From positions 41,540,001 to 41,604,000 of the forward strand of contig JBNRSN020000029.1 in assembly GCA_051313645.2 (NCBI GenBank): 64,000 bases of DNA, given 5' to 3'. Both the position numbers and the translations under genes were made by a program. This document shows, in pieces, positions 6,076 through 64,000 of the stretch; the stretch's first letter is position 1; each line of letters begins with the position of its first letter. The notes beneath the pieces were generated by a model. That model searched no databases. It had not been told where the DNA came from and was given only the letters and a program-made list of their open reading frames with translations. This stretch comes from Centroscyllium fabricii (Eukaryota).

Positions 6076-6369
6076 CACTCTAAAACTGACCGTACCTTCA
6101 GGCTTAACGCATGCACAGTGATTCTAGAGTTGTGAACAGTCATTCACTGCTCCACCACAGGCGGAGCTGTGGAATTCCCTATAGCTGGCAATCAGTGAAA
6201 TCATTTGAAAGAACATAAACGTCCCCTTCTCGACTTTCATATCACTGTTAATCACCTCATAAAATGTTAAGCTCTGTTGAACGAGGTGTAATGTGTTTAT
6301 AACGGGGTATTGACTGCTGAACCATCGTTCTGGCCCGGAAAAGCTAATTTAATATTTTTATGGAATGTC

Positions 6370-6830: not shown

Positions 6831-7025
6831 GGTCCCCCCTCAGCCTCCTCTGCTCCAAGGAAAACAACCTCAACCTCTCCAGTCTCTCTTCACAGCTGGA
6901 GCTCCCCAGCCCAGGCAGCATCCTGGTGAATCTCCTCTGCACCCTCTACAAAGCTATTACATCCTTCCTGTAGTGCGGCGACCAGAACTGCACACAATAC
7001 TCCAGTTGTGGTCTTACTAGCGTTT
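6831..7025 (-). mobile_element. CR1 LINE fragment
   Basis: Minus translation [34 protein letters not shown] is a CR1 ORF2 C-terminal motif. Confidence 0.85.
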
Positions 7026-7194
7026 TTCCCCTGGATTGCTGTCTGTGAAAATTCCTTCATATGACTGGCTGCTTCGGCAGCTTTGTGACATCACTGAGGC
7101 TGGACGATGGGGATTCCCTTTTGACAGGGCTAGAATCAAATTACGGTGGAGAATTACAACATTTTCACCAAATACGTCACAATGGGCGGTATTT

Positions 7195-7921
7195 TGCAAA
7201 CCCTATCAGCGCATACGAGGTGTATACACACCCAGATGTGCCGCGCAAGTGCCGGGTTTAGGCATGCGAAATGCATGTGCTAATACCCGGCACGTGTGAT
7301 CTGTCAGTAATTGACAGATCGCACGCATTCCCGCGGGAAGGCCCTCCACGGCTGTGGAGTTGTGCTTTTTGCATAACATCCGACTGCTGAAATCGTTTTA
7401 AAATCTTTGCCTGGTAACATTTTAGCAATAATTTGTAATTTTAAAATACTTTTAAGAAATATAGGTTCATTTTTAGCTCCGTAAAAAAGTTAACATTTTT
7501 AAAATATTTAATTTATTTTCGTTTGAATTAATTTATAATATGTAATTAAAATAATTATTTAATGTTTTACTGTGTTTTAAGTGATCCCTTTTCATACTTT
7601 TGACAGTTCCGTACGTACAGAATTGTCAAAAGTGTGAAAAGGTATTTCGTTCTTTGATTGGCCCCATGGTTACCTGATCCCAGGGATCCTTGCGAACTGG
7701 TATACCAGGGCCTCTGCGCATTTCGTAGTATAAAGGCCCAGGATCGAAATTCTCGGGATCTATGGAACCAGCAGTTAAGTACGTAGATTTTTGTTCCAAT
7801 CATAGTAATTCGTCTGCAGGGAGCCGGCGATCGGAAAATGAGCTCAAACCCTTTGTGAGCTACCTACTTCAAGACCAGTGGCGATCGCCGTCAATTCGCT
7901 CCTGACTGTAAATTGAGGCCC
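7195..7921. mobile_element. Harbinger-like non-autonomous element (hairpin-rich, about 1-kb MITE family)
   Basis: Internal palindrome gatctgtcagtaattgacagatc, AT-rich centre, terminus aaattgaggccc|aat shared with other copies; left boundary approximate. Confidence 0.6.
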
Positions 7922-41659: not shown

Positions 41660-42805
41660 ATAGACTTAACAGCGTGAATAGGCAAATGTATGGCAGATGA
41701 AGTACAATGTAGATAAATGTGAGGTTATCCAGTTTGGTGGTAAAAATAGAGAGGCAGGCTATTATCTGAATGGTGGCAGATTAGGGAAAGGGGAGGTGCA
41801 ATGAGACCTGGGCGTCATGGTACATCAGTCACTGAAGGTGGGACTGCAAGTGCAGCAGGCGGTCAAGAAAGCAAATGGCATGATGGCCTTCATAGCAAGG
41901 GGATTTGAGTACAGGAGTAGGGAGGTGATGCTACAGCTGTAGACGGCCTTGGTGAGGTGTGCAGGTTTGGTCTCCTAACATGAGGAAGGACATTCTTGCT
42001 ATTGAGGGAGTGCAGGGAAGGTTCACTAGATTGATTCCTGGGAAGGCCGGACTGACATATCAAGAAAGACTGGATCAACTGAACTTGTATCTTCTGGAGT
42101 TCAGAAGAATGAGGGGGGATCTTATAGAGACATTTAAAATCCTGACTGGTTTAGACAAGTTAGATGCGGGCAGAATGTTTCCAATGTTAGGGAAGACTAG
42201 AACCAGGGGTCGCAGTCTAAGTATAAAGGGGAGGCCATTTAAGACTGAGATGAGGAGGAACTTCTTCACCCAGAGAATGGTGAATCTGTGAAATTTGCTG
42301 CCACAGAAGGTTGTTGAGGCCAGTTCGCTCAATAAATTCAAAGGGGAGTGAGATATAATACTCACAACTAGGGGGATCAAGGGGTATGGCGAGAAAGCAG
42401 GAATGGGGTACTTAGGTAGCATGTTCAGCACCTTCCAAACCCGCGGCCTCTACCACTTAGAAGGACAAGGGCAGCAGACGCATGGGAACAGCACCACCTA
42501 CAAGTCCCCTCCAAGCCACACACCATCCTGACTTGGACCTGTATCGCCGCTCATTCACAGTCGCTGGGACAAAATCCTGTAATTCCCTTCCTAACAACAT
42601 TGTGGGTGTACCTACACCATATGGACTGCAGCGGTTCAAGAAGGTGGCTCACCACCATCTTCTCAAGGGCAATTAGCGATGGGCACTAAATGCAGGCCTA
42701 GCCAGCCAGCGACGCCCACCTCCCATCAATGAAAAAAAAAATGAATAGACCAGGCTCGAAGGACCAAATGGTCTACTCCTGCACCTATTTTCTATGTTTC
42801 TATGT
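41660..42805 (+). mobile_element. CR1 LINE 3' portion interrupted by the second LINE family's 3' end (42420-42742)
   Basis: RKDILAIEGVQGRFTRLIPG, RRMRGDLIETFKIL, RRNFFTQRMVNL; tail tttctatgtttctatgt. Confidence 0.92.
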
Positions 42806-45800
42806 AAAATATAAGGGTGCCCATTCCAGTTAAAATATAAGGGTGCACTTTCCAATAAAAATATAAGGGTTCCCCATCTAATTAAAATAGAAGGGTGCCC
42901 TTTCTAATTAAGATATAAGGGTGCCCATTCAAATTGAAATATAAGGGTTCCCATTCTAATTAAAATATAAGGGTTCCCTTTCTAATTCAAACGTAAAGAG
43001 AACCTTTCTAATTAAAATATAAGGATACCCTTTCTAATTAAAATATAAGGGTTCCCATGCTAATTAAACTATAAAGGTTCACATTCTAATTAAAATATAA
43101 GGGTGCCCTTTCTAATTATAATATACGGGTTCCCATTCTAATTAAATTGTTAGTGTGCCCTTTCTAATTAAAATAAAAGGGTGCCCAATCTAATTGAAAT
43201 GTAAGGGTTCCCATTCTAATTAAAATATAGGTTTTCCCTTTCTTATTATAATATAAGGGTTCCCATTCTAATTAAAATATAAGGGTTCCCATTCGTATTA
43301 AAATTTAAGGCTGCCCTTCCTAATTAAAATATAAGAGTTCCCTTTCTAATAAAAATATAAGGGTTCCCATTCTAATTAAAATATAAGGGTTCCCATGCTA
43401 ATTAAAATATAAAGGTTCCCATTCTAACTAAAATATAAGGGTTCCCATTCTATTAAGAATATAAGGGTGCCATTCTAACCAAAATATAAGGGTGCCCATT
43501 CTAATAAAAATATAAGGGTTCCCATTCTAATTAAAACATAAGGGTGCACTTGCTAATTAAAATATAAGGGTGCCTTTTCTAATTAAAATTTAAGGGAGCC
43601 ATTTCTAATTATAATGTGAGGGTGCCCTTCCTAATTAAAATATAACGTTGCCATTTCTAATAAAAATGTAAGGGTTCCCTTTCTTTTTCAAATATAAGGG
43701 TTCCCATTCTAATTAAAATGTAAGGGTGCCCATTCTAATTAAAATATAAGGGTTCCAATACTAATTAAAATATGAGGTTGCCCTTTCTAATTAAAATATA
43801 AGGGTTCACATTCTAATTAAAATATAAGGGTTCCCTTTCTAGTTAAAATAATAGGTTGCCCATTCTAATTAAAATTTAAGGGTGCACATTCAAATTTAAA
43901 TATAAGGGTCCCCATTCTAATTTACATATATGGGCTCCAATTCTAATTAAAATATAAGGTTGCTCATTCTAATTAAAATATAATGGTTCCGTATCCAAAA
44001 AATATATAAGTGTTCCCATTTTAATTAAAATATAAGGGGTCCGTTTCTAATTAAAATGTAAGGGTTCCCATTCTAAATAAAATTGTTGTTCTCATTCTAA
44101 ATAAAATATAAGGGTGCCCTTTCTAATTAAAATATAAGGTTGCACTTTCTAATAAAAATATAAGGCTTCCCATTCTAAGTAAAATAAAATTGTTCCCATT
44201 CTAATTAAAATATATGTTTGCCCATTCTAAATAAAATATAAGGGTGCCCTTTCTAATTACAATAGAAGGGTTCCCATTCTAATTAAAATATAAGTGTTCC
44301 CATAATAATTAAAACATAAGGGTTCCCTTTCTAATTAAATTATAAGGGTTCGCATTCTAATAGATATATCAGGGTACACATTCTAATTAAAATATAATTG
44401 TTCCCATTCTAATTAAAATAAATTGTTGCCCATCCTAAATGAAATATAAGGGTGCCATTTCTAATTAAAAAGAAGGGTTCCCATTCTAATTAAAATATAA
44501 GGGTTCCCATTCTAATTAAAATATAATTGTTCCCATTCTAATTAAAATAAATTGGTGCCCATTCTAAATGAAATATAATGGTGCCATTTCTAATTAAAAA
44601 GAAGGGTTCCCATTCTAATTAAAATATAAGGGTTCCCATTTTAATTAAAATGTAAGGAGAACCTTTCTAATTTAAATATAAGGGTACCCTTTCTAATAAA
44701 AATATAAGGGTTCCCATGGTAATGAATCTATAAATGTTCACATTCTAATTAAAATATAAGGGTTCGCATTCTAATAAAAATATAAGGGTACCCATTCTAA
44801 TTAAAATATAATTGTTCCCATTCTAATTAAAATAAAAGGGTGCCCATTCTAAATTAAATATAAGGTTGCCCTTTCTAATTAAAAATAAGGGATCCCATTC
44901 TAATTAAAATGTAAGGGTTCCCATTACAATTAAAATTTAAGGAGAACCTTTCTAATTAAAATATAAGGGTACCCTTTCTAATTAAAATATAAGGGTTCCC
45001 ATGGTAATTAATCTATAAATTTTCACATTCTAAATAAAATATAAGGGTGCCCTTTCTAATTAAAATATAAGGGTTCCCATTCTAATTAAAATGTAAGGGT
45101 GCCCTTTCTAATTAAAATATAAGGGTTCCCATTCTAATTAAAAAATAAGGGTGCCCTTTCTAATTAAAATAAAAGGGTGCCCAATCTAATTGAAATGTAA
45201 ATGTTCCCATTCTAATTAAAATATAGGTTTTCCCTTTCTAATTATAATATAAGGGTGCCCATTCTAATTAAAATATAAGGGTGCCCATTCTAATAAAAAT
45301 ATAAGGATGCCCTTTCTAATTAAAATATAATGGTTCCCATTATAACTAAAATATAAGATTCCCATTCTAATTAAAATTTAAGGCTGCCCTTCCTAATTAA
45401 AATATAAGGGTGCCCTTTCTAATTAAAATATAAACGTTCCCATTCTAATTAAAATATAAGGGTTCCCTTTCAAATAAAAATATAAGGGTTCCCATTCTAA
45501 TAAAAATATAAGGGTGCCCATTCTAATTAAAATATAAGTGTTCCCATTCTAATTAAAATATAAGGGTGCACTTTCTAATTAAAAGATAAGGGTGCCTTTT
45601 CTAACTAAAATACAAGAGAGCCATTTCTAATTATAATGTAAGGGTGTCCTTCCTAATTAAAATATAAGGGTGCCCTTTCTAATTAAAATATAAGGGTTCC
45701 CATTCTAATTAAAATGTAGGGGTGCCCTTTCTAATTAAAATAAAAGGGTGCCCAAACTAATTGAAATGTAAAGGTTCCCATTCTAATTAAAATATAAGTT

Positions 45801-48800
45801 TTCCCTTTCTAATTATAATATAAGATTTCCCATTTTAATTAAAATATAAGGGTGCCCATTCTAATAAAAATATAAGGTTGCCCATTCCAGGTAAAATATA
45901 ATGGTTCCCATTCTAACTAAAATATTAGGGTTCCCATTCTAATAAAAATATAAGGGGTCCCATGCTAATTAAAATATAAGGGCGCACATTCTAACTAAAA
46001 TATAAGGGTTGCCATTCTAATAAGAATATAAGGGTGCCCTTTCTAATAATAATATAAGAGTTCCCAAGCTAATTAAAATATAAGGGTTCCCATTCTAATT
46101 AAAATATAAGGGCTCCCATTCTAATTAAAATATAAGGGTGCCCATTCTAATAAAAATATAAGGTTTCCCATTCTAATTAAGATATAAGGGTGCCCATTCT
46201 AATAAAAATATAAGGGTGCCCATTCTGATAAAAATATAATGGTTCCCATTCTAACTAAAATTTAAGGCTGCCCTTCCTAATTAAAATATAAGGGTGCCCA
46301 TTCTAATAAAAATATAAGGGTGCCCATTCTGATAAAAAATATAAGGGTTCCCATTCTAATTCAAATATATGGGTGCTTTTTCTAATTAAAATATAAGGGT
46401 GCCTTTTCTAATTAAAATATAAGGGAGCCATTTCTAATTATAATGTAAGATTGCCCTTTCTAATTAAAATATAAGGGTGCCCTTTCTAATTAAAATATAA
46501 GGGTTCCCATTCTAATTAAATTGTAAGTGTGCCCTTTATAATTAAAATAAAAGGGTGCCCAACCTGATTGAAATGTAAAGGAGCCAATTCTAATTAAAAT
46601 ATAAGTTTTCCCTTTCTAATTATAATGTCAGGGTTCCCATTCTAATTAAATTATAAGGGCACCCATTCTAATTAAAATATAAGGGTTCCCATGCTAAATA
46701 AACTATAAGGATTCCCTTTCTAATTAAAATATAAGGGTTCACATTTTAATAAAAATATAGGGGTACGCATTATAATTAAAATATAAGGGTTCCCATGCTA
46801 ATTAAAATATAACGGTTCCCTTTCTAATTAAAATATAAGGGTTCGCATTTTAATAAAAATATAAGGGTACCCATTCTAATTAAAATATAATTGTTCCCAT
46901 TCTAATTATAATAAAAGGGTGCCCATTCTAAATGAAATATAAGGGTGCTCTTCCTAATTAAAATATAAGGGTTCCCTTTCTAATTAAAATCTAATGGTGC
47001 CCATTCTAATTAAAATATAAGGGTGCCCTTTCTAATTAAAATATAAGGGTATGCATTCTAATAAAAATATAAGGGTACCCATTCTAATTAAAATATAATT
47101 GTTCCCATTCTAAATAAAATATAAGGGTGCCCATTCTAAATAAAATATAAGGGTGCCCTTTCTAAATAAAAAGAAGTGTTCCCATTCTAATTAAAATATA
47201 AGGGTTCCCATTCTAATTAAAATACAAGGGTGCACATTCTACTTAAAATATAAGGGTGCCATTTCTAAGTAAAATATGTGGGTGACTTTTCTAATAAAAA
47301 TATAAGGGTTCCCATTCTAATAAAAATATAAGGGTTCCCTTTTTAATAAAAATATAAGGGTTCCCTTTAAAATTAAAATGTAAGGGTGACCTATCTAAAT
47401 AAAATAAAGGGGTGCCCATTTGTAATTAAAATATAAGGGTTCCCATTCTAATTAAAATATAAAGGTTCCCATTCTAACTAAAATTTAAGGGTGCCCTTTC
47501 TAATTAAAATAGAAGGGTTCACATTCTAATTAAAATATAATGATTCCCATTCTAACTAAAATATAAGGGTTCCCATTCTAAATAAAAATTAAGGGTGCCC
47601 TTCCTAATTAAAATATAAGCGATCCCTTTCTAATTAAAATATAAGTTGGACCTTTCCAATTAAAATATAAGGTTTCCCATTCTAATTAAAATATAACGGT
47701 TCCCATTCTAATTAAAATATAAGTGTTCCCATGCTAATTAAAATATAAGGGTTCCCTTTCGAATTAAAATATAAGGGTTCCCTTTCCATTTAAAATATAA
47801 GTGTTCCCATTGTATATAAAATAAAAGTGTGCCCTTTCTAATTAAAATATAAGGGTGCCCTTTCTAATTAAAATATAAGTGTAAAAAATCCTAATTGAAA
47901 TATAAGGCTTCCCATTCTAATTAAAATATAAGGGTTCCCATTCTAATTATAATATAATGTTTCCCTTTCTAATTAATATATAAGGTTTCCCTTTCCAATT
48001 AAAATGTAAGTGTGCCTTTCTAATTAAAATATAAGGGTTCCCATTATAATTAAAAAATAAGGGTGCCCTTTCTCATCAATATATAAGGGTTCCCATTCTA
48101 TTTAAAATATAATGGTACTCTTTCTAATTAAAATATTAGAGTGCCCATTCTAATTAAAATATAGGGGTGCCCTTTCTAATTGTAATATAAGATTTCCAAT
48201 TCTAATATAAAAATAAGGGTGCCCTTTCTAATTAAAATATAAGGGTGCCCTGTCTAATTAAAATATAAATGTTCCCCTTCTAATAAAAATATAAATGGGC
48301 CCTTTCCAATTAAAATATAAAGGTTTCCATTCTGATTAAAATATAATTGTTCCCTTTCAAACTAAAATATAAAGGTGCCCCTTCTAATTAAAATATAAGG
48401 GTTCCCTTTCTAATTAAAATAAAAGGGTGCCCTTTCTAATTAAAATATAAGGGTTCCCTTTCTAATTAAAATATAAGGGTTCCCTTTCTAATTAAAATAT
48501 AAGGGTGCCTTTTCAAATTAAAATATAAAGGTACCCAATCTAATTAAATTATAAGGGTTCCCTTTCGAATTAAAATATAAGGGTTCCCATGCTAATAAAA
48601 ATGTAAGAGTTCCCATTCTAATAAAATATAAGTGCGCCCTTTCTAATTAAATCATAAGTGTGCGCTTTCTAATTAAAATTTAACAGATCAATTTCTAATT
48701 AAAATATAAGGGTGCCTTTCTAATTAAAATATAAGTGTTCCCATTCTAATTAATATATAAGGGTTCCCATTCTAATTAAGATATAAGCGTGCCCTTTCTA

Positions 48801-51800
48801 ATTAAATCATAAGTGTGCACTTTCTAATTAAAATTCAACAGATCAATTTCTAATTAAAATATAAGGGTGCCTTTCTAATTAAAATATAAGTGTTCCCATT
48901 CTAATTAAAATATAAGTTTGCCCTTTCAAATTAAAATATAAGTGTTCCCATTCTAATTAATATATAAGGGTTCCCATTCTAATTAAGATATAAGCGTGCC
49001 CTTTCCAATTCAAATATATGTGCGCCCTTACTAATTAAAATATATGGGTGCCCTTTCTTATTAAAATATACGTGTGCCCATTCTAATTAAAATATAAGGG
49101 TTCCCATTCAATTCAGGTTTTAACGGTGCCCTTTCTACTTAAAATAAAAGGGTTCCCATTCTAATTAAAATATAAGTGTGCCCTTGCTAATGAAAATATT
49201 AGTGTTCCCATTCTAATTAAAATATAAGTGTTCCCATTCTAATTAAGATATAAGGGTAACCTTTCTAATTAAAATATAAGGGTACCCATTGTTATTAAAA
49301 TATAAGTTTGCTTTTTCCAATAAAAAGATAATGGTGCCCTTTCTAATTAAAATATAAGGGGCCCTTTCTAATTAAAATATAATGGTGCCGTTACTAATTA
49401 AAATATAAGAGTGCCCTTTCTAATTGAAATATAAGGCTTCCCATTCTAATTAAAATATAAGGGTTCCCATTATAATTAAAATATAAGGGTTCCCATTCTA
49501 ATTAAAATATAAGGGTTCCCATTCTAATTAAAATATAAGGGTTCCCTTTCTAAATAAAAGATAAATGTTCCCTTCCCAATTAAAATATAAGGGTTCCCAT
49601 TCTAAATAAATTATAAGGGTGCCCTTTATAACTAAAATGGAAGGGTTCCCATTATAATTACAATATAAGGGTGCCCTTCCTAATTAAAATATAAGAGTTA
49701 CCATTATAATTAAAATATAAGTGTTCCCATTCTAATTAAAATATAAGGGTTCCCTTTCTAATTAAAATATAAGGGTTCCCATTCCACATAATATATAAGG
49801 GTGCCCTCTCTAAATAAATATAAGGGTACCCATTCTAATTAAAATATAAGGGTGCCAATTCTTATTAAAATAAAAGAGTGCCCTTTGAAATTAAGATATA
49901 GGGATGCCCTTTCCCAATTAAAATATAAGAGCTAATATTCGAATTAAATTATGAGTTCCCCTTCTAATTAAATATTAGGATACCCATGCTAATTAAAATT
50001 TAAGGGTGCCCTTTCTAATTAAAATAGAAGGGTTCCCTTTCTAATTAAAATATAAGGGTGCCCTTTCAAATTAAAATATAAAGGTGCCCATTCTAATTAA
50101 AATATAAGGGTTCCCTTTCTAATTAAAATATAAGGGTTCCCATGCTAATAAAAATATAAGGGTTCCCATTCTAATAAAATATAAGTGCGCCCGTTCTAAT
50201 TAAATCATATGTGTGCGCTTTCTAATTAAAATTTAACAGATCAATTTCTAATTAAAATATAAGTGTGCCTTTCCAATTAAAATATAAGTGTTCCCATTCG
50301 AATTAAAATATAAGTTTGCCCTTTCAAATTAAAATATAAGAGTTCCCATTCGAATTCAAATATAAGCTTTCCCTTTATAATTAAAATGTAAGTGTTCCCA
50401 TTCTAATTAATATATAAGGGTTCCCATTCTAATGAAGATATAAGCGTGCCCTTTCCAATTCAAAAATATGTGTGCCCGTTATAATTAGAATATAAGGGTT
50501 CCCATTCTAATTAAAATATAAGGGTGTCCTTTCTAATTAAAATATACGTGTGCCATTTCTAAGTAAAATATAAGTGTGCACTATCTAATTAAAATAAAAG
50601 GGTGCCAATTCTAATTAAAATATAAGCATGCCAATTCTAATTAAAATATAAGGGTGCCCTTTCTAATTAAAATATAAGGTGCACTTTCTAAATAAAATAT
50701 AAGGGTTCACCTTCTAATTAAAATATAAGGGTGTCCTTTCTAATTAAAATATAAGGGTCCCATTTCTAATTAAAATATAAGGGTTCCCATTCCAATTAAA
50801 ATAGAAGGGTTCCCTTACTAATTAAAATATAAGTGTGCCCTTACTAATTAAAATATAAGGGTGCCCTTTCTTATTAAAATATACATGTGCCCATTCTAAT
50901 TAAAATATAAGGGTTCCCATTCAATTAAGGTTTTAACGGTGCCCTTTCTACTTAAAATAAAAGGGTTCACATTCTAATTAAAATATAAGTGTGCCCTTGC
51001 TAATGAAAATATTAGTCTTCCCATTCTAATTAAAATATAAGTGTTCCCATTCTAATTAAGATATAAGGGTAACCTTTCTAATTAAAATATAAGGGTTCCC
51101 ATTCTATTTAAAATATATGGGTTCCCATTCTAATTAAAATATAAGAGTGCCCTTTCTAATTAAAATATAGTGGTTCCCATTCTAATTAAAATATAAGGGT
51201 GCCCTTTCTAATTAAAGTATAATGGTGCCCTTTCTAATTAAAATATAAGGGTACCCATTGTTATTAAAATATAAGTTTGCTTTTTCCAATTAAAAGATAA
51301 TGGTGCCCTTTCTAATTAAAATATAAGGGGCCCTTTCTAATTAAAATATAATGGTGCCGTTACTAATTAAAATATAAGGGTGCCCTTTCTAATTGAAAAA
51401 TAAGGGTTCCCATTCTAATTAAAATATAAGGGTTCCCATTCTAATTAAAATATAAGGGTTCCCATTCTAATTAAAATATAAGGGTTCCCATTCTAATTAA
51501 AATATAAGGGTTCCCTTTCTAAATAAAAGATAAATGTTCCCTTCCCAATTAAAATATAAGGGTTCCCATTCTAAATAAATTATAAGCGTGCCATTTATAA
51601 CTAAAATAGAAGGGTTCCCATTATAATTACAATATAAGGGTGCCCTCTCTAAATAAATATAAGGGTTCCCATTCTAATTAAAATATAAAGGTGCCAATTC
51701 TTACTAAAATAAAAGAGTGCCCTTTGAAGTTAAGATATAGGGGTGCCCTTTCCAATTAAAATATAAGAGTTAATATTCGAATTAAATTATGAGTTCCCCT

Positions 51801-54800
51801 TCTAATTAAATATTAGGATACCCATGCTAATTAAAATTTAAGGGTGCCCTTTCTAATTAAAATAGAAGGGTTCACATTCTAATTAAAATATAATGATTCC
51901 TATTCTAACTAAAATATAAGGGTTCCCATTCTAATTAAAAATTAAGGGTGCCCTTCCTAATTAAAATATAAGGGATCCCTTTCTAATTAAAATATAAGTG
52001 GGACCTTTCCAATTAAAATATAAGGTTTCCCATTCTAATTAAAATATAAGGGTTCCCATGCTAATTAAAATATAAGGGTTCCCTTTCGAATTAAATAATA
52101 AGGGTTCCCTTTCCATTTAAAATATAAGTGTTCCCATTGTATATAAAATAAAAGTGTGCCCTTTCTAATTAAAATATAAGGGTGCCCTTTTTTAATTAAA
52201 ATATAAGGGTAAAAAATCCTAATTGAAATATAAGGCTTCCCATTATAATTAAAATATAAGTGGGCACATTCCAATTGAAATATAATGGTTTCCATTATGA
52301 TTAAAATATAAGGCTGCTCTTTCTAATTAAAATATAAGGGATCCCATTCTAATTAAAATATAAGGGTTCCCATTCTAATTATAATATAATGGTTCCCTTT
52401 CTAATTAAAATATAAGGGTTCCCTTTCCAATTAAAATATAAGTGTGCCTTTCTAATTAAAATATAAGGGTTCCCATTATAATTAAAAAATGAGGGTGCCC
52501 TTTCTCATCAATATATAAGGGTTCCCATTCTATTTAAAATATAATGGTACTCTTTCTAATTAAAATAATAGAGTGCCCCTTCTAATTAAAATATAGGGGT
52601 GCCCTTTCTAATTGTAATATAAGATTTCCAATTCTAATATAAAAATAAGGGTGCCCTTTCTAATTAAAATATAATGGTGCCCTGTCTAATTAAATTTAAG
52701 TGTTCCCCTTCTAATTAAAATATAAGTGGGCCCTTTCCAATTAAAATATAAAGGTTTCCATTCTGATTAAAATATAAGGGTCCCCATTGTAATTAAAATA
52801 TAATTGTTCCCGTTCAAACTAAAATATAAAGGTGCCCCTTCTAATTAAAATATAAGGGATCCCTTTCTAAATAAAATATAAGGGTGCCCTTTATAACTAA
52901 AATAGAAGTGTTCCCATTATAATTACAATATAAGGGTGCCCTTCCTAATTAAAATATAAGGGTTACCATTCTAATTAAAATATAAGGGTTCCCTTTCTAA
53001 TTAAAATATAAGGGTTCCCATTCCATATAATATATAAGGGTGTCCATAAATAAATATAAGGGTTCCCATTCTAATTAAAATATAAGGGTGCCAATTCTTA
53101 ATAAAATAAAAGAGTGCCCTTTGAAATTAAGATATAGGGGTGCCCTTTCCAATTAAAATATAAGAGATAATATTCGAATTAAATTATGAGTTCCCCTTCT
53201 AATTAAATATTAGGATACCCATTTTAATTAAAATATAGGAGTTCCCTTTCTAATTAAAATATAAGTTTTCCCTTTCTAATTAAAATATAAGGGTTCCCAT
53301 TCTAATTAAAATATTAGGATTCCCATTCTAATTAAAATATAAGAGTTCCGTTTCTAATTAAAGTATAAAATTTCCCATTCTAATTGAAATATAAGGGTTC
53401 CCTTTCTAACTAATATATAAGGGTTCCCTTTCCAATTAAAATATAAGGGTTCCCATTCTACATAAAATAAAAGAATGCCATTTCTAATTAAAATATAAGG
53501 GATCCCTTTCTAAATAAAATATAAGGGTGCCCTTTATAACTAAAATAGAAGTGTTCCCATTATAATTACAATATAAGGGTGCCCTTCCTAATTAAAATAT
53601 AAGGGTTACCATTCTAATTAAAATATAAGGGTTCCCTTTCTAATTAAAATATAAGGGTTCCCATTCCATATAATATATAAGGGTGTCCATAAATAAATAT
53701 AAGGGTTCCCATTCTAATTAAAATATAAGGGTGCCAATTCTTAATAAAATAAAAGAGTGCCCTTTGAAATTAAGATATAGGGGTGCCCTTTCCAATTAAA
53801 ATATAAGAGATAATATTCGAATTAAATTATGAGTTCCCCTTCTAATTAAATATTAGGATACCCATTTTAATTAAAATATAGGAGTTCCCTTTCTAATTAA
53901 AATATAAGTTTTCCCTTTCTAATTAAAATATAAGGGTTCCCATTCTAATTAAAATATTAGGATTCCCATTCTAATTAAAATATAAGAGTTCCGTTTCTAA
54001 TTAAAGTATAAAATTTCCCATTCTAATTGAAATATAAGGGTTCCCTTTCTAACTAATATATAAGGGTTCCCTTTCCAATTAAAATATAAGGGTTCCCATT
54101 CTACATAAAATAAAAGAATGCCATTTCTAATTAAAATATAAGGGATCCCTTTCTAAATAAAATATAAGGGTGCCCTTTATAACTAAAATAGAAGTGTTCC
54201 CATTATAATTACAATATAAGGGTGCCCTTCCTAATTAAAATATAAGGGTTACCATTCTAATTAAAATATAAGGGTTCCCTTTCTAATTAAAATATAAGGG
54301 TTCCCATTCCATATAATATATAAGGGTGTCCATAAATAAATATAAGGGTTCCCATTCTAATTAAAATATAAGGGTGCCAATTCTTAATAAAATAAAAGAG
54401 TGCCCTTTGAAATTAAGATATAGGGGTGCCCTTTCCAATTAAAATATAAGAGATAATATTCGAATTAAATTATGAGTTCCCCTTCTAATTAAATATTAGG
54501 ATACCCATTTTAATTAAAATATAGGAGTTCCCTTTCTAATTAAAATATAAGTTTTCCCTTTCTAATTAAAATATAAGGGTTCCCATTCTAATTAAAATAT
54601 TAGGATTCCCATTCTAATTAAAATATAAGAGTTCCGTTTCTAATTAAAGTATAAAATTTCCCATTCTAATTGAAATATAAGGGTTCCCTTTCTAACTAAT
54701 ATATAAGGGTTCCCTTTCCAATTAAAATATAAGGGTTCCCATTCTACATAAAATAAAAGAATGCCATTTCTAATTAAAATATAAGGGTGCCCTTTCTAAT

Positions 54801-55432
54801 TAAAATATAAGTGTAACAAATTCTAATTAAAATATAAGGCATCCCATTCTAATTAAAATATAAGTGGGCACTTTCCAATTAAAATATAAGGTTTTCCATT
54901 CTGCATAAAATATAAGGCTGCCCTTTCTAATTAAAATATAAAAGTTTCCATTCTGATTAAAATATAAGGGTCCCCATTCTAATTAAAATATAAGGATTCC
55001 CTTTCAAACTAAAATATAAAGGTGCCCATTCTAATTAAAATATAAGGGTTCCCATTCTAATTAAAATAAATGGGTGCCCTTTCTAATTAAAATATAAGGG
55101 TTTCCATTCTAATTAAAATTTAAGGGTTCCCCTTCTAATTAAAATATAAGTGCTCCCTTTCTAATTAAAATATAAGTGTGCCCATTCTAATTAAAATATA
55201 AGGGTGCCCTTTCTAATTAAAATATAAGTTTGCCCTTTCTAATTAAAATATAAGGGTTCACATTCTAATTAAAATGTAAGTTTGCCCTTTCTAATTAAAA
55301 TATAAGGGTTCACATTCTAATTATAATGTAAGGGTGCCCTTTCTAATTAATATATAAGGGTTTCCATTCTAATTAAAATATAAGGGTTCCCATTCTAATT
55401 AAAATATAGTGCTGCCCTTTCTAATTCAAATA
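42805..55432. repeat. Satellite array, 26-bp monomer TTCTAATTAAAATATAAGGGT(T/G)CCC(A/T), about 12.6 kb (roughly 480 copies)
   Basis: Continuous tandem repetition of diverged monomers; 643-bp higher-order unit x3 at 52856-54784. Confidence 0.98.
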
Positions 55433-55435
55433 TGC

Positions 55436-58400
55436 TGGGGGGTAATTTTCGTGTGCCGGGCGGGCGGGGTTTTCGGCGGGCGGGAGATGAAAATTCGACA
55501 TTTTTGTTCCCGTCCAATCCCGCCCATTTTCCCGCCGGTTTCGAATTTTCGTCCTGGTTTTCTTGCCACCCTGAATCCGTCCCACCGGCGCCCGGGGCGG
55601 ACAACTCGATAACCAAAGTTTCAGAGGGACAACTCGTTAACCAAAGGGCAGTGGGACAACTCGTTAACCAAAGTGTCAGCGGGACAAATCATTAACCAAG
55701 GTTTCAGAGGGGCAACTCCTTAACAAAAGGGCAGTGGGACAACTCGTTAACCAAAGGGCAGTGGGACAACTCGCAAACCAAAAGGGCAGTGGGACAACTC
55801 GTTAACCAAAGGGCAGAGGGACAACACGTCAACCAAAATTTCAGAAAATATATATATATAATTTGGCCGCCGCCCAGTATGGCATTCGATAGGGCAGGCC
55901 AAGCCGATTCTAACAGTATGAAAATGGCATCGCTCTGACGTTAGAGTGCGCAGATACGGCCATTCAAACTTGTACTGGAAGTCGCCAAGGGAAAATATTT
56001 GACCACCCGTGACCGAAAAAATATCCAGAGGTCGTTCACAAAAGTCAAGTCCTTCCCGCCGATTTGACACTTGTCATTTCTGGCTAGTGGGGTTGGCGGG
56101 GTACCCGGAGAATGGTAGGAGGTGGCTTTTCGAGACTTGGTCCGATTTTCAAAATAAAGTCTCGAGCCTCCAGGTCTGCAGAGACCGACCCAGGCTGCCG
56201 TTTAGCCTACTTTTAACCCATTTTGGTGGAAATAGTTTTCCGATTTTTGACCATTTTTCGTTCGGGATTACAAACGGCGGCCTGCCGCCTGGCAGAGGCG
56301 GGGGCTTCGGCTTCCTTTTGGAAGGGACCTAATTCGACCCGATTTAGCCTGAAAAAGTGATCCCAGGGCGGCCGATAGAGCGAGCAGAGGCGCAGGAATG
56401 GCCAGGTGGGCAACTCGTTAACCAAAGAAAACTTGGTCTGCTGGAGAGACTAAGTCCCAGGCTGGGCAACTCGTTAACCACTGTAAAACTATTTGGCTGC
56501 TGCGGGGTCTAAGTCCCAGGCTGGGCAACTCGTTAACCAGAAAAAAACTTGGTCTGCTGGAGAGACAAAGTCACAGGCTGGGCAATTCGTTAACCAGAAA
56601 AAAACTTGGTCTGCTGGAGAGACTAAGTCCCAGGCTGGGCAACTCGTTAACCAGAAAAATCTTGGTCTGCTGGAGAGACTAAGTCCGAGTCTGGGCAACT
56701 CGTTAACCAAGGAGCAGAACAGGGGTGCCTGGAATGCGGGAGAGAGAAAAAACCCGAAAAAACCCGAAAACACGGAAGTCCCTATGAGGTTTTATTTGGC
56801 CCCCTTTAGCGGGGGGGGGGGGGTGTATGCTCGTTTCGGGAATGGTGAAGCGAGTTGGTCCCGTCGAATTGACACTTGGTTTTCGATTTTGAACAACTCG
56901 TTAACCAAACACGGTAGTCCCATGAGGTTGGATTCGGCCTGCCGTGGCGGGCCTCGGGTGATGCTTCCCGGCTTGCGGAAGTGAGTTGCTCCCGCCGAAT
57001 TGACATCTGCCATTTCTGGCAAGTGTCTCCGAACCATAGTTAATGAGTTGTCGGCTGGCAACTCGTTAACCAACACGGAAGTCCCGATGAAGAAATAAAA
57101 AAGGGGCATTTACGGGGATTTGGATGCTCATGGGCGGACTGAGGTGGTCGTTTCTCCCGCCGATTTGACACTTGTCATTTCTGGCTGTGGGGGTTGGCGG
57201 GGTGCCCGGAGATTTTCAGGAACACGATTTTCTGAAAATGTTTGTGTCAGCAGGAGCACTTTGAAACTACCCGAAAACTGTTTACTTGCGAAAAGGCTCT
57301 TTTTCCCGAAATGGAGACCTTACAAAAGAGTATTCGAAAGTCATTTTTGAACAGTTTTGTGATGATAACTTTGACTTTTCGGACTCTTAGAGAAAATCTG
57401 AAATCGTAGACAGACAGCATTGGCAAACATATATGTTTTAATGCCTTTTTCCTAGTATCACGTTGCTGTCTGTCAAACACAGGTGCCTCTGAGCGGGTCA
57501 GGGCCTGTGGCTCCACCGAGCAACCGATGCACATGCAGTGTTGGCACTGAGTTCCCCTGTGTAGTGCACTCGGTGGATCCATCTTGCGATCGATCACACG
57601 CATCGTGTCCGATGTGGGAGGGCCTGAGGCGGTCCAGTAAGAGAGAGAGAGAGAGGCTGGTTGCTCAGGCTTTTCGGGCTTTTGGTCCCTCGGGTGACAT
57701 GACCATAGCCGAGTCAGAGAGAGGGGTGTCGGCGCGTCTCCCGGTGTTTGCTCCTTTTGTCGGCGCCCGTTTGTTTGTCCACCAATGCGCCGTGTGTGGC
57801 CACGACGCCCACCTTTGTTTGCAGTGGTCCGATTCGAGCACCCGAGCGGGCATCCGACTTCTCAAACCCGAAATCTGGTGGTGCGAGAGTGTGCTCAGTG
57901 TGTCCCGTTCCGGTAGTTGAACACAAGATTTCTCTGGCAACTTTATACAAAGAGAACCGCTCACGGAGACACACGCACACATGGTGTAGGCTGTTGTGTG
58001 AGGGGCTTCTTCTTTGCCTTGATGGTAACCATTTGGAAACACGACCAGAAGTTTTAAACCCGGCACCAACCTCCCTGTTCGTGACGGGGAGGATTTCACT
58101 GAGGCAGGCAGCAGTGGCCATGTGCGCAGCACCAGGCAGAAAGTGATCAGTGGTTTAGTCTGTTGTGTTGAGCGGCTTCTTCCTTTACCTTGATGGTAAC
58201 CGTTTGGGAAAACGACCACAAGTTTGAAACCCGGGACCAACCTCCCTGTACATGACGGGAAGGAGGCCACTGAGGCAGCAGTGGCCAGGTGCCCAGAAAG
58301 AACCACCCTGTACGTGACGGGGAGGAGGAGGCCACTGAGTCAGCAGTGGCCAGGTGAGCAGCACACAGCACCTGGCATAGCGATCGCTGGATGGTGGTGG

Positions 58401-58977
58401 CTAATTTTACCAGAAATAAAGTCAATTCGCTGAGCTTTACCCCAAGCGTGATCTCGCCAGCTGGTGGATCTTTCATCCTGATGGTCTCCGTGGCTCAGCC
58501 CGATGCAAGAACACTGTAGGCCTCACACAAAGTGGTGTGCTTAAAATGTCCGAGCGTGTTGTTTGCATCATTATGGACGTTCGACCCTGTGGCGAGTCCG
58601 GCAAGGTGGGCTTTCGTTGTCGACTTTTTTATTTTTTGGTTTCCTGTGTTACACGTTGCTCCCTTCCTGGCAGCTGAGTTTGCCGACCAAAAGCAAAAGC
58701 GCACACAGACACATGCGCACGGGGTGCAGGTTGTCTGTCGTGTGGCTGGGTTTCTCCTTGCCTTGAAGGTTACCTTCTGCAAAAACACGAAATCGCACTT
58801 TCTAAACCGAAACTGAACCTCCCTCTACGAGACGGGGAGGAGGCCATTTGGGGCGGCTGGCCATGTGGCCAGCACAGCACCAGGCAAAGCGATCGGTGTT
58901 TGGTGGTGGCTAATTTACTCGGAAAAAAGGTCAATTCGCTTAGCTTTACCCCGAGCGTGATCTCGCCACCTTGGTAG
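55436..58977. mobile_element. GC-rich, probably DNA-transposon-derived segment with arrayed subterminal motifs
   Basis: Begins GGGGGTAATTTT like the local MITE termini; about 17 copies of GGRCAACTCGTTAACCA; internal hairpin repeats; no recognisable ORF. Confidence 0.45.
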
Positions 58978-59259
58978 TGATGTATCATCAATAATATAAA
59001 GACGCGTAGTTACCTTAACTGTAGGCTTTTATTAGATTTACAAAGGAGCTACGCTCCGGTCGAACATCAGGTACAGAATGAATGGGGGCAGGTCAGACCC
59101 CACATATAAGGCACTCACCTGAGGGGAGGAGTTAGAGGTGTGGCTGACCTGACCCCGCGACATTGTCACAATACAAAAACTATGTACAGTGCACCCAGCC
59201 GCTATACATGCTGGTTTATATTGTGCTTCACTATTACAGTGGTAATAATGGTTACCACA
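58978..59259 (-). mobile_element. 3' LTR (282 bp) of Gypsy element A
   Basis: Minus strand TGTGGTAACC...GATACATCA; PPT aaagaaggggtgca immediately upstream (59260-59273); AATAAA present. Confidence 0.92.
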
Positions 59260-59279
59260 TGCACCCCTTCTTTGAAAAT

Positions 59280-61505
59280 TTAGTCCGGCTGGGTGAAAGG
59301 ACAGAGCAGTTCATAATAAGTCTCTCCAGCGGTCGCGTCTGCCTTGAGGATCACCGGGTCTCTGTTAGCGGCGCTGGTGCCTGTAGTGTCGGCAGCGCTG
59401 GTGCCAGTATTGTCGGTGCTGGTGTCGGTAGTGGCGGTGGGGCCGGGCCCTCCAGTGGCTGTGGTGCGGCGGCCAGTTCTTGGTCCTCGGCTGATAGTGG
59501 CGGGGGCTCCGGTGTGTGTGTGTGCATAGGCCAAAATCCGGTGGGTTGTGGTTGGTGTGTAGGCCAGTGTTCGGTAGGTAGTGACTGGTCGGGCTGAGGC
59601 TCGACAAGGGGCTCTGCTGTGGTGCTCCCGGCGGGCGCTAGGTCCCTGATGGAAACTGTGTCCTCGCGCCCGTCCGGGAACTGCACGTATGCGTACTGTG
59701 GGTTAGCATGCAGCAGCTGCACCTTCTCCACCAGGGGGTCGGTCTTATGGCCGCGGACATGCTTTCTAAGTAAGACTGGCCTCGGCATCGTGAGCCATCG
59801 TGGGAATTCTGTCCCCGAAGTCGACTTCCCCGAAGTCGACTTCCTGGGGAAGGAAAAGAGCAATTCGTGAGGTGTGGCATTGGTAGCCATACACAGCAGA
59901 GAGCGGATGGAGTGCAGCACGTCTGGGAGGACTGCCTGCCAACGGGACACTGGAAGGCCTATGGACTTCAGGGACAGGCTGACCGCCTTCCAGATGATCC
60001 CGTTCTCCCTTTCTACCTGGCCGTTCCCCGGGGGTTGTAACTGGTCGTTCTGCTTGAGGCAACCCCTTTCTGAAGCAGAAACTGACGCAGTTCGTTGCTC
60101 ATGAACTACGACCCCCGGTCGCTATGGATGTAGCTGGGGAGACCGACAATGGCGAACAACGTGGTGAAGTGTTTGATCACCGTTGTGCTCGTCATATCTG
60201 GGCAGGGGAAGGCGAAGGGGAAGCGGGAGAACACGTCTACGACCGTGAGGAAGTACGAGTTGCGGTCGGTGTAGGGGAGGGGGCCTTTGAAGTCCACGCT
60301 TAGACTTTCAAAAGGGCGGGTGGCCTTAATGAGGTGTGCCGTGTCTGGCCTGCAAAATTGGGGTTTGCAGTCGGCTCAAACAGGGCACTCTCGGGTCATA
60401 GCCTTGATCTCCGTGATGGAGTAGGGGAGGCTACGGGACTTAACGAAATGGGCAAGTCTGGTGATACCCGGGTGGCAGAGGCAATTGTGGAGTTCCTTCA
60501 GCCGGTCTAGCTGGGCACTGGCGCACAGTGCGTCCGGGGGTTCATTGAGTTTGGCTGGTAGGTAAAGAATGTCGTACTCATAAGTCGAGAGCTCGATCCG
60601 CCACCGCAGGATCTTATCATTCTTGATTTTACCCTTTTGTTTATTGTTAAACATAAACACGACCGACCGTTGGTCGGTGAGCAGGGTAAAACACTTACCA
60701 GCCAGGTAATGACGCCAGTAGTGCACGACCTCCACGATGGCCTGGGCCACCATTTCCACTGCAGAGTGGCGAGTTTCGGGTCCCTGTAGGGTGCAGGAGA
60801 AAAACGCTACGGGCCTGCCTGCCTGATTCAGGGTGGCAGCAAGGGCAAATTCCGAAGCGTCACTCTCCACCTGGAAAGGGATGGACTCATCAACGGCGTG
60901 CATGGCTGCCTTGATAATATCTACCTTGATCCGGGCGAACGCCGTGTGGGCTTCTACCGAGAGGGGGAAGATGGCAGCCTTGAGGAGCGGTCTGGCCTTA
61001 TCCGCGAACTGGGGAACCCATTGCGCATAATAAGAGAAAAATCCCAGACATCTCTTCAGGGCTTTGGGGTTGTGAGGTAGGGGCAGTTCCTGTAAGGGAC
61101 GCATACGCTGTGGGTCGGGGACGAGGACCCCGTTTTCCACCACGTATCCGAGGATGGCGAGCCGATCTGTACTAAAGATGCAAATATCTTTAATGTACAT
61201 GAGATCGAGCCGTTTCGCCATGTGGAGAAATTTGGCCAGATTGGCATTGTGGTCCTGCTGATCATGGCCGCAGATGGTCACGTTGTCCAGGTAGGGGAAA
61301 GTGGACTGCAACCCGTTCTGGTCAACCATGCAGTCCATCTCCCTCTGGAATACCGACTCCGCATTGGTCACGCCGAAGGGGACCCGGAGGAAGTGGTAGA
61401 GCCGACCGTTCTCCTCGAAGGCAGTGTACGGGCGGTCGGCTTTCCGGATCGGGAGTTGGTGATACGCCAACTTAAGGTCGATTGTGGAGAACACCTTGTA
61501 CTGGG
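59280..61505 (-). pseudogene. pol: Gypsy pol (RT-RNase H-integrase), disrupted and truncated within RT
   Basis: FSTIDLKLAYHQ, YTAF, PFGVTNA, PYLDNV, ESDASEFAL, HNCLCHPG..CPV, DFKGP, VVDVFSRF, HSDRG; stops and frameshifts. Confidence 0.95.
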
Positions 61506-61805
61506 TGTGGTAACCATTATATATGTACGCTTTTACCACCTCAATATTGTGCCAATATTGTATTGCATGTATAGCGGCCGGGTGCATAATACACTGCACT
61601 GTATTGCGACACTGTCGCGGGGTCAGGTCAGCCACACCTCTAACTCCTCCCCTCAGGTGAGTGCCTTATAGGTGGGGACTGATGTGCCCCCATCCATTCT
61701 GTACCTGATGTTCGATCGGAGCGTAGCTCCTTTGTAAGCTAATAAAAGCCTATAGTTAAGGTAACTACGCGTCTTTAGTTTTATTAGACTATTGATGATA
61801 CGTCA
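61506..61805 (+). mobile_element. 5' LTR (300 bp) of Gypsy element B, opposite orientation
   Basis: TGTGGTAACC...GATACGTCA; homologous to the reverse complement of 58978-59259 but with a diverged 5' U3. Confidence 0.92.
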
Positions 61806-61832
61806 ATTTTATTAGCTTAGAAAAATTCTAAA

Positions 61833-62390
61833 ATGGAGAGCGGCGCTGTAAAACCCGAAAAGCTGGACATTAGTCCACAGGACCCAGCCGCCGCCAACAC
61901 CTTCAAACACTGGTTCGGCCTCGTGGAGGCCTACATGGACGCCGCCAAGGCTACAACCGACGGGAACAAGCTACATGTTCTCCGGTCCAGGATCTCCAGC
62001 CGGGTATTCTCCATCATCCGTGATGCCACAACGTATATTGAAGCAGTGGCGAAACTGAGGAAATGCTACGAGCGCCCGGTCCCCTCAGTGTACGCCAGAC
62101 ATGTGCTCGCGACCAGACCACAACTACTGAGTGAGTCTAATGAGCAGTACCAGCTGGCACTCCAAGCCCTTGTCCAGGCCTGTGGCTGCCAACCATGGAC
62201 GGCACAAGAGGAGGCAAACCTCCTCGTCCGGGACGCCTATGTAACGGGACTCAGGTCCGCAGAGGCCCGCCAGCGGCTGCTGGAAAAAGACACTCTAACT
62301 CTGGACGAGGCGATCTCTATCTCCAACGCTGTGGAGGGCGCACGCCCCAAGCTACAGGCGTACGGCGGCCCAAACCCACACCAGACGTAG
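61833..62390 (+). CDS. gag: Gypsy gag N-terminal part (185 aa, 3'-truncated)
   Basis: ATG 28 nt after the LTR; ARHVLATRPQ..ES..Y..AL..L...C and VRDAYVTGLRS...RQRLLE..TLTL gag motifs; ends at a junction with MITE sequence. Confidence 0.85.
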   Translation: MESGAVKPEKLDISPQDPAAANTFKHWFGLVEAYMDAAKATTDGNKLHVLRSRISSRVFSIIRDATTYIEAVAKLRKCYERPVPSVYARHVLATRPQLLSESNEQYQLALQALVQACGCQPWTAQEEANLLVRDAYVTGLRSAEARQRLLEKDTLTLDEAISISNAVEGARPKLQAYGGPNPHQT

Positions 62391-62592
62391 ATTTTTAAAG
62401 GCTTTCAACGGACGGAGGTTCTGCAGAAAGTGAAACGCTCCACCCGCAGAAGCCCTCCTCCAAGACAGGCAGATGATCTGTCAAGGGGATTGTTGACATG
62501 CACTGCGCATGCCTGAAACCAGTGCTTTTGAGTTCCCTGCGGGTGTGTACACGGCTCGTACACACCCGTATGGATCAGAAAATACGGGCTCA
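62391..62592. mobile_element. Right end of a Harbinger-like MITE
   Basis: Hairpin cgggtgtgtacacggctcgtacacacccg and terminus ggatcagaaaatacgggct as in other copies. Confidence 0.75.
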
Positions 62593-62767
62593 CAGTTTGA
62601 TTGAAATTGCTCGTTTATGAAGCTGTAGCAAGATGCCTAGTCTATTAGAATGGCGTCCATGTCAAAAAGAGATACATTTTAAATAAATCCTTAACAGCAG
62701 CTTCCATTCATTGGATTATTTATACTGGTCTATAAACTCAGTATGGAACTCTGTCGATATTCCTCAC

Positions 62768-62803
62768 TTGATTCACCGGAAGCCTCTTTCAACTTTTCGA
62801 TTT
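62768..62803 (-). CDS. 36-nt phase-1 exon (xIEKLKEASGES), the most 5' exon found in the window
   Basis: attatttttcttccag|AAATCGAAAAGTTGAAAGAGGCTTCCGGTGAATCAA|gtgagg; paralogous to 25329-25364. Confidence 0.82.
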
Positions 62804-63032
62804 CTGGAAGAAAAATAATGTTTTATGTTTCACCTGCAAAATATCAAAATCCGTGCCACTGACCCAAATTGAGAATCGACTGCTTTTCTTTAATTTGAAC
62901 TATTAATCCTTATTTTTATTTTGGTCGTTAAAGGGCACAATTGAAATAGCTAATATTAAAGAACGAAGAATCGCCAGCAAGGCAGCGGGGATTTCTGTTT
63001 TGTCATCGTTTTCGTCCCAGGCCCGGTCCTTA

Positions 63033-63312
63033 GAAACATAGAACAATAGGAGCAGGGATAGGCAATTCGGCCCTTCGAGCCTGCTCCACCATTCACCATG
63101 ATAATGGCTGATCCTCTATCTCAATACCATATCTCAATACCCTGCTCCTATCTTAATCTTTCTATAGGGTAATGAATTTGGATGGTCAGCCGTGATCTCA
63201 GTAAATGTTGGAGCAGGCTCGAGGGGCCGAATGGCCTGCTCCTGCACCTATCTTCAATGTTTCTATGCTTCTATATCCCCGCTCTCTCTCCATACCCATT
63301 GATGCCTTTAGT
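63033..63312. mobile_element. Nested CR1/SINE 3' tails in opposite orientations
   Basis: Minus-strand tail gaaacatagaacaataggagcagg interrupted by a plus-strand tail ending gtttctatgcttctat. Confidence 0.75.
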
Positions 63313-63734
63313 AGTGATGATGAGAAAATTAGGTCCACGTTGAAATGCAGCATTTAGTTATTACACGAAACACAAGTAAGCAACTAAAATATATAATTCG
63401 GCTTGAGATTAACCTGGATTATCGCATAATGTTAAAAAGAGGAAGTACAACGTTCAGATAAATATATAATGGCTCTTTACAAAGCAACTCGTCATGATGT
63501 TCAAAAAGGTTTATTTTCATGCAGGGCTTAGTAAACAGCAATGAATCACGAATCAACATCTGTTACTGAATTCGACGAAAGCGCCACCCTGTGAAGCACT
63601 TGGAAATATTTACTGGAAGAAATATGCTAAATTAAAATTACGAATAGCAACCCACTACACGTTTGCGTCTGTGGGGGAATTGATGCAACTCTTTAATGAA
63701 AAGCTCCTCGATATTGAAATATTTCCCTTTGGTC

Positions 63735-64000
63735 ACAGACACAAAAGATAGGAGCAGGAGTAGGCCATTCGGCCCTTCGAGCCTGTTCCGCCATTTTGAC
63801 GAGATCATGGCCGATCATCCAAACCCAGCGCCCTCCTCCTCCTCCTCCTCATATCTCCAACTCTCAGAACAATATTATCTCACACACATACTCATGGGCA
63901 ATTTCGTTTTATTATTATCTCCAATTCAACTAACCTGCATGTCTTTGGGTGGTGGGAGGAAACCGTAGTACCCGGAGGAAACCCACATGAACACGGGGAG
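63735..64000 (-). mobile_element. V-SINE, diverged, running off the window end
   Basis: Tail gataggagcaggagtaggccattcggcc and core gggaggaaaccgtagtacccggaggaaacccac. Confidence 0.85.

Follow-up and report, generated by a model that had tools for sequence, protein, structure and literature searches.

A primer-binding site complementary to its own LTR at the poly(A) signal points to self-primed reverse transcription in a Gypsy lineage without a recognised chromodomain

How is reverse transcription primed in a Gypsy element whose 5′ LTR is followed by no tRNA-type primer site? The question is raised by an element fragment in a 64,000-nt stretch of Centroscyllium fabricii DNA (here called the window, for the whole of that stretch), in which the position of the primer-binding site is complementary to the LTR of the same element, across a presumed poly(A) signal. 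An earlier note on this DNA had proposed tRNA-independent self-priming and/or a switch, specific to the 5′ LTR, that masks AAUAAA. We conclude that the junction pairing is almost certainly real and selected. A primer derived from the element itself, of whatever kind, is very probable, and the best reading is that the lineage primes in cis with its own RNA, which we consider probable. The evidence for a primer consists of DNA sequence and predicted folds.

The locus carries two sister-element fragments, A and B, lying back to back:

58978–59259, minus strand: 3′ LTR of element A, 282 nt, an 87% match to LTR B, with an arm variant at 59027–59040
59260–59273, minus strand: polypurine tract of element A, in the sequence directly upstream of LTR A
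59351–61505, minus strand: broken pol fragment of element A (RT, RNase H, integrase) with RT motif YLDN, from Pfam RVT_1, RT_RNaseH and rve and from tblastn with a full-length relative
61506–61805, plus strand: 5′ LTR of element B, 300 nt, TG…CA, 87% identical over 243 nt to LTR A, with ends taken from the alignment
61833–62390, plus strand: truncated gag of element B, 185 codons, stopping short of the zinc knuckles, from protein comparison with relatives

Element A retains RT, RNase H, integrase, polypurine tract and 3′ LTR, with stops and frameshifts, and element B its 5′ LTR, primer site and 185 gag codons; the pol of B is absent within the window. LTR B interrupts element A within the RT: B was inserted into A, and the RT present in the window is that of A, on the other strand. 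Gypsy hallmarks are present, both in the LTRs (TG…CA ends and a polypurine tract) and in the order of pol domains, which is RT, RNase H and integrase in element A and protease, RT, RNase H and rve in full-length relatives of gag B. Each of the two window elements has one end. Apparent target-site duplications were seen in relatives (CCAAT/CCAAT in L051, CTATA/TTATA in L022), three other paired elements being unclear or cut. Among named proteins, those closest to gag B come from rays (about 50% identity), followed by crustacean ones (34–38%), a pattern from which a cartilaginous fish would be the probable host. The best gag match (P0001) groups with the RT of element A with a support of 1.0, which ties elements A and B to one lineage. 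ARAGORN found no tRNA gene in the window, Rfam gave no match in 54000–64000, and no relative of the element was found in the viral contigs scanned.

Several other repeats occupy the same window. A 12.6-kb satellite at 42805–55408 is built of about 486 copies of a 26-nt AT-rich unit, with 79% matches. Tandem repeats of 27 nt and 57 nt at 55599–55837 and 56402–56709 share the core CAACTCGTTAACCA and lie in a GC-richer stretch adjoining this satellite, with scattered copies to about 57075. A short dispersed repeat, SINE-like by its look, is found at 63031–63270 and 63739–63855 and also at 11.1, 16.7, 20.7 and 24.4 kb; two copies are mutually inverted.

The junction between LTR B and gag B contains the following features, all on the plus strand:

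61735–61747: LTR arm, complement of the primer site and presumed self-primer, whose 3′ end would be A61747; 13/13 Watson-Crick pairs, with the same layout in 13 other families
61741–61746: AATAAA inside the arm, by its sequence a presumed poly(A) signal
61748–61762: small hairpin GCCT…AGGT at the presumed cut site, predicted to stack immediately 3′ of the arm; RCCT/AGGY recurs in families
61779–61787: second TTTTATTAG in U5, missing from LTR A in the LTR alignment
61806: one-base spacer between the terminal CA and the primer site
61807–61819: primer-binding site without TGG, complementary to the element's own LTR

Inspection of the sequence bears out what the earlier note had described. Positions 61735–61747 (TAAGCTAATAAAA) are the exact reverse complement of 61807–61819 (TTTTATTAGCTTA), a single base (A61806) separates the terminal CA of LTR B from the paired stretch, TGG, with which a tRNA-type primer site starts, is absent directly after this 5′ LTR copy (61506–61805), and the gag ATG indeed stands 13 nt past the paired stretch, at 61833. 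Outward, the duplex runs into a G·G mismatch (61734/61820) followed by three more A–T pairs; inward, pairing ends immediately. The fold of 61690–61860 has a z-score of −2.8, one of 200 shuffles being equally good. The note had also stated that a pairing partner exists only downstream of the 5′ LTR. As a qualification, a 9-nt partner is present inside LTR B as well, in the second TTTTATTAG (61779–61787), an indel relative to LTR A; in the predicted fold that copy forms its own local hairpin, which does not cover AAUAAA. At the other element, the outer flank of LTR A is not complementary to the LTR A arm variant (59027–59040).

Related elements allow the pairing to be followed through changing sequence. 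Alignment on gag led to 69 metagenome loci, which fall into 13 groups, and to two loci (L070 and L071) from genome contigs labelled bacterial MAGs. Two groups were left out, L008/L009 with no recognisable primer site and L046 as too short; the 11 groups kept, together with the window, L070 and L071, make 14 families, each represented by its best-pairing copy, with gag identities of 25–65% over the 91 pairs. Since the families are kin and many loci are identical re-assemblies, the counts that follow are not independent events; they show a maintained trait, not independent origins.

A motif-free scan matched the 65 nt ahead of the gag ATG with an arm 25–75 nt further up and took the best pairing over 14 nt, four of the 71 loci being too short for it. 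At least 12 of 14 pairs were found in 53 of the 67 scorable loci and at none of 67 control positions in gag, so that the complementarity is maintained in other copies, a point on which the earlier note had made its reading depend. The other 14 loci (L006, L008, L009, L021, L025, L033, L034, L048, L052, L059, L065, L066, L068 and L069) score 9–11 of 14 and are read as decayed or rearranged copies. When distinct copies are counted (37, two too short being left out), 30 reach 12 of 14 with their own LTR, compared with 17 of 1164 cross-family combinations, the best position being allowed in cognate and cross comparisons alike.

The same holds when the hexamer is set aside. At site positions 7–13, which lie outside it, 97 of 98 cognate pairs hold across the 14 families with letters changing on both sides; cross-family pairing at these positions averages 3.2 of 7 and is complete in none of 182 combinations. 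Positions 7, 8, 9 and 10 each show four different pair types. Permutation of family labels, carried out with the first 12 families, gave 0 in 200,000, and L070 and L071, fetched after the rule was set, obey it with runs of 13 and 17 nt. The longest perfect runs, in three families, measure 18 nt. Each family's site tracks its own LTR.

The register of the pairing is likewise fixed. Where both LTRs are available (L004, L010, L022 and L051), their similarity extends as far as the CA ahead of the site and no further. In all 14 family representatives the site is preceded by CA and one further base; sites were located by means of this pattern, on which the motif-free scan does not depend. In the families the gag ATG follows within about 10–40 nt, which leaves no other primer site. 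It is this register at the LTR edge, with the two-sided covariation in 14 families, that supports the tRNA-independent self-priming proposed at the outset. A CA..TGG in 8 of the 67 loci, all in one family (L006/L030/L065), was considered as a tRNA site and rejected: those letters belong to the gag start, ATG-GCG, some 25 nt beyond the end of the LTR.

Two observations concern the loci themselves. In L018 and L020 (about 5714–7695), two copies of LTR, primer site and gag start lie about 1.7 kb apart in the same orientation, as tandem or nested copies of one family. L070 and L071 carry Gypsy gag, LTR and primer site on short contigs filed as bacterial MAGs, probably through eukaryotic contamination.

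Variation among copies was read from short contig pieces that cover the stretch in four of the 20 runs listed, pieces that do not phase arm and site. Run X1 gave 19,840 pieces matching the stretch, so the family is abundant there. Among the 40 substitutions listed for the four runs, none falls in the LTR arm and none in the primer site; the positions that vary among those listed are 61731, 61752, 61796, 61820, 61821, 61825, 61828 and 61830, and the indels among those listed lie behind 61735 and at 61819–61828. An A inserted behind 61735, which gives a length like that of LTR A, accounts for about 5% of depth in X1 and X6, with no partner change in the site among the rows listed. Position 61694 is T in about two-thirds of the depth in X1.

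The surroundings of the arm also recur. Its end lies 32–60 nt before the LTR end, and the local 5′ duplex closes a loop of 33–60 nt and dominates the predicted fold. RCCT stands directly after the arm in 11 of 14 families, and an AGGY partner follows 7–18 nt on in seven of the 14, against 0.8 in shuffles (none of 5000 shuffles reaches seven); in the predicted fold, the two pair as a small hairpin stacked on the duplex. With its 3′ end opposite the site's first base and directed towards U5, the arm has the orientation required of a primer.

These features suggest the following scheme. In the transcript, a segment of 13–18 nt in the 5′ LTR, ending in …(A/U)AAA, is predicted to pair by a fold-back with the site that begins after the one-base spacer. 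By analogy with Tf1 and its RNase H cleavage, a cut at the 3′ end of the duplex, between the last A and the RCCU hairpin, would free a 3′-OH facing U5. RT would then copy U5 back to the cut, on a template that would start at RCCU, and the strong-stop DNA would jump by means of the short segment that extends from the cut to the poly(A) site. The duplex would also hide the 5′ copy of the hexamer and is predicted to have no local counterpart at the 3′ LTR. Should the primer be copied during plus-strand synthesis, each cycle would bring arm and site into agreement, and the covariation itself would be a product of the mechanism. From this geometry one would expect an RNA 3′ end that coincides with the arm's final A and an RNA 5′ end that starts at RCCU; the poly(A) signal should be closed in the 5′ LTR and open in the 3′ LTR.

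Covariation in DNA is blind to the copy that is used, and the 3′ LTR arm, identical in kind, pairs with the site at 11–14 of 14 positions in all five elements scored (their 3′ flanks pair at only 3–5 of 14). The self-derived primer might therefore act in trans, as a short abortive transcript or as another packaged RNA, or come from the 3′ end, as the arm copy in the 3′ R, which also has the hexamer. It would be trimmed to a 3′-OH, and in the last of these versions the arm would circularise the genome by pairing with the site. Against this, the local 5′ duplex with its short loop should form first during transcription, and the precedent, Tf1, is a 5′ fold-back (PMC7175516). We regard a trans or 3′ primer as improbable, although of the competing explanations it fares best.

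The hexamer raises a second alternative, in which the duplex would serve mainly to mask the 5′ poly(A) signal and thereby allow full-length RNA, with another primer in use. In nine families AATAAA or ATTAAA reaches exactly to the arm's end, and in two (the window and L070) it stops one base earlier; families with ATTAAA carry the matching TTTAAT in the site. In the predicted fold of 61727–61830, the probability that the hexamer is unpaired is 0.00–0.07 with the primer site and 0.99 without it. Yet three families (L004, L065 and L071) pair over perfect runs of 10–17 nt with no AATAAA or ATTAAA in the arm, and in L030 an ATTAAA 11 nt downstream of the arm stays unmasked. Moreover, for masking alone the partner would not have to begin exactly one base after the LTR, and the element would be left with no primer site. 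The register at the LTR edge and the three families lacking the hexamer favour a primer role over masking alone, which we consider more improbable still than a primer in trans. The 5′-specific masking put forward in the earlier note thus stands in part: the predicted fold agrees with it, but it is not universal, 3 of 14 families having no hexamer in the arm. That masking is a second function of the duplex and matters in vivo is suggested by the modelled fold, and we would put it at somewhat under an even chance.

A host RNA, such as a tRNA half, a tRNA fragment or another small RNA, might also prime, the match to the LTR being incidental. Among Copia elements there are cases of priming by half-tRNAs with no TGG (PMC6317226), and the G·C pair at position 10 in 11 of 14 families, with the T-rich starts of the sites, could mirror an outside constraint. 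However, sites track their own LTR and not those of other families, so that 14 different host RNAs would have to match 14 arms, and we hold this to be very improbable. Finally, coincidental complementarity in AT-rich sequence or an inverted duplication peculiar to this copy, which the 13-mer with only two G/C and the rearranged, nested and truncated locus might invite, can be dismissed: a complement to the 13-mer was found in one of 100,000 shuffles of LTR B, neither arm carries a substitution among the 40 listed for the four runs, and the pairing is kept in 13 other families with different letters, the cross-family result refuting this explanation.

Self-priming in cis, the reading we prefer, still leaves two positions for the arm in the transcript. 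The LTR upstream of it contains two signals on the plus strand:

61640–61662: branch-point-like CTAAC, pyrimidine tract and CAG|GTGAGT (splice acceptor- and donor-like at one point), from sequence
61667–61699: TATA-like word at 61667–61670 and, 29 nt downstream, an initiator-like word (A at 61696), giving a candidate start site 35–39 nt upstream of the arm, predicted from sequence

In 8 of 14 families an initiator-like TCAKTY is found upstream, 35–125 nt from the arm end (mean of shuffles 2.2; 2 of 2000). Such words upstream of the arm fit poorly with a strict Tf1 geometry, and a long primer would require a second trim. As in Tf1, the RNA may begin with the arm itself, but we lean slightly towards an arm inside a longer leader.

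The names given to the motifs at 61640–61662 are presumptive. This block is the most conserved part of the LTR and is identical in LTR A; in the window it lies 91 nt before the arm end. A pyrimidine tract followed by YAG occurs in the interval 12–70 nt before the arm end, at distances of 15–50 nt, in nine families (L001, L002, L003, L004, L017, L037, L065, L070 and L071, the window not being among them), against 2.5 in dinucleotide shuffles (0 of 1000) and 2 of 14 families in the neighbouring interval, a significance that is overstated because the interval was picked after the positions were known. The acceptor-like signal could belong to a leader intron or act as an upstream enhancer of 3′ processing. 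A spliced primer was considered and set aside as unnecessary, unspliced arms already pairing fully as judged by eye. It is conceivable, though on balance we think it rather unlikely, that one RNA junction does two jobs: the primer site would swallow the 5′ poly(A) signal, a later cut at the end of the signal would make an internal piece of the leader the primer, and the acceptor-like signal would be part of the switch, as leader intron or as enhancer of 3′ LTR processing.

Read depth is also uneven in this part of the LTR. All four runs have a depth peak at 61619–61652, and in two distant runs the highest depth of the LTR is at 61615–61659, a segment identical in both window LTRs from 61619 on and holding GGGGTCAGGTCA, which presumably resembles tandem nuclear-receptor half-sites.

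To which lineage do these elements belong? The relatives have a single gag-pol frame of about 1200 aa in elements of about 4.2–4.3 kb, LTRs of 230–300 nt, 5-nt target duplications, and a gag with two Cys/His knuckles. None of 13 full-length relatives matches Pfam Chromo or SH3_Tf2-1, and the integrase tail of element A matches no Pfam family; SH3_Tf2-1 was found in 4 of 12 distant matches scanned. In a midpoint-rooted FastTree phylogeny of 101 RT-RNase H rows, which contains no named Tf1/sushi sequence, the 76 close relatives cluster with a support of 0.97, separately from 25 of the 45 distant matches. Membership of Tf1/sushi is not supported. A PDB search, with Ty3 as the best match, did not place the clade, and a cluster look-up of 10 relative proteins returned no names. 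Single frame, size and two gag knuckles are features of Mag or Cigr-1, animal Ty3/Gypsy elements without chromodomain to which the lineage may be likened in these respects.

The RT has a peculiarity of its own. In the sub-branch that includes the window RT (60379–61505, minus strand), L002, L006, L022 and L004, the catalytic motif is YLDN, YMDN or YVDN instead of YXDD (42 of 191 proteins fetched). As a diagnostic of paired families, YLDN was rejected: among paired families, L002 and L022 have YLDN but L001 and L026 have YLDD. Our literature search for the YLDN motif of RT found no paper.

Self-primed reverse transcription has been worked out only in Tf1 of fission yeast and, among Gypsy elements, is tied to chromovirus kin in the portions of the literature covered. 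In Tf1, the RNA's first 11 bases pair with the primer-binding site, and RNase H cleaves between base 11 and base 12 (PMC7175516). Tj1 of S. japonicus is a further precedent (PMC4600332), self-priming of Tf1/sushi type is also reported in vertebrates (PMC4600332, PMC6317226), and the Tf1/sushi, Tcn1 and TAR lineages are described as self-priming (PMC6317226). Like Tf1 and Tf2 of Schizosaccharomyces pombe, Tj1 and the Tf1/sushi chromoviruses, the elements described here have no tRNA site, a site that pairs with their own 5′ LTR, and the Gypsy domain order. Unlike Tf1/sushi, the lineage shows no match to Chromo or SH3_Tf2-1 in 13 of 13 full-length relatives, and its duplex measures 13–18 nt. In contrast to Tf1, the arm stops 32–60 nt from the LTR end, in 11 of 14 families at the poly(A) hexamer or one base beyond it, and may be internal to the transcript.

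For plant Tcn1 (Gypsy) and TAR, Houba and Osr-1 (Copia), self-priming was inferred in the same way, from complementarity between LTR and site across a lineage, which shows that self-priming arose more than once (PMC6317226); these belong to another superfamily or to a chromovirus branch, have plant hosts, and are given no link to the poly(A) signal in the part of the paper covered. Skipper has no TGG either, but no LTR complement is reported for it in the portion covered (PMC5006619), and the precursor of LTR elements has been proposed to have been self-priming (PMC3601003). Mosquito Mag elements have tRNA-Leu, -Ser or -Arg primer sites (PMC3286476), whereas the present lineage has none of these.

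If our reading is right, a second, chromodomain-less lineage, found in rays, crustaceans and marine samples, left tRNA priming again or kept an older state. The Mag lineage (A, B and C clades) and the Cigr-1 clade likewise have no chromodomain and a single frame. Self-primed elements would be expected to escape silencing by 3′ tRNA fragments aimed at tRNA-type primer sites, and annotation tools needing a tRNA site will miss them. Repbase entries are said to call some animal Gypsy families self-primed, so that a prior mention is possible. In the literature covered in part, which includes PMC6934838, PMC6238403, PMC3587641, PMC12471100 and PMC8220671 and has most subscription journals and Repbase Reports outside its scope, we found no description of self-priming at a poly(A) signal in a chromodomain-less animal Gypsy lineage.

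What the sequences point to is a known mechanism, self-priming, in a lineage to which the literature covered does not tie it, and linked to the poly(A) signal. For that link the nearest likeness is a retrovirus. In HIV-1, AAUAAA is buried in a 5′ poly(A) hairpin within the LTR, and priming is by tRNA-Lys3. Here too the hexamer is predicted to be part of a stem, close to the RNA's 5′ end, but its partner is the primer site, outside the LTR.
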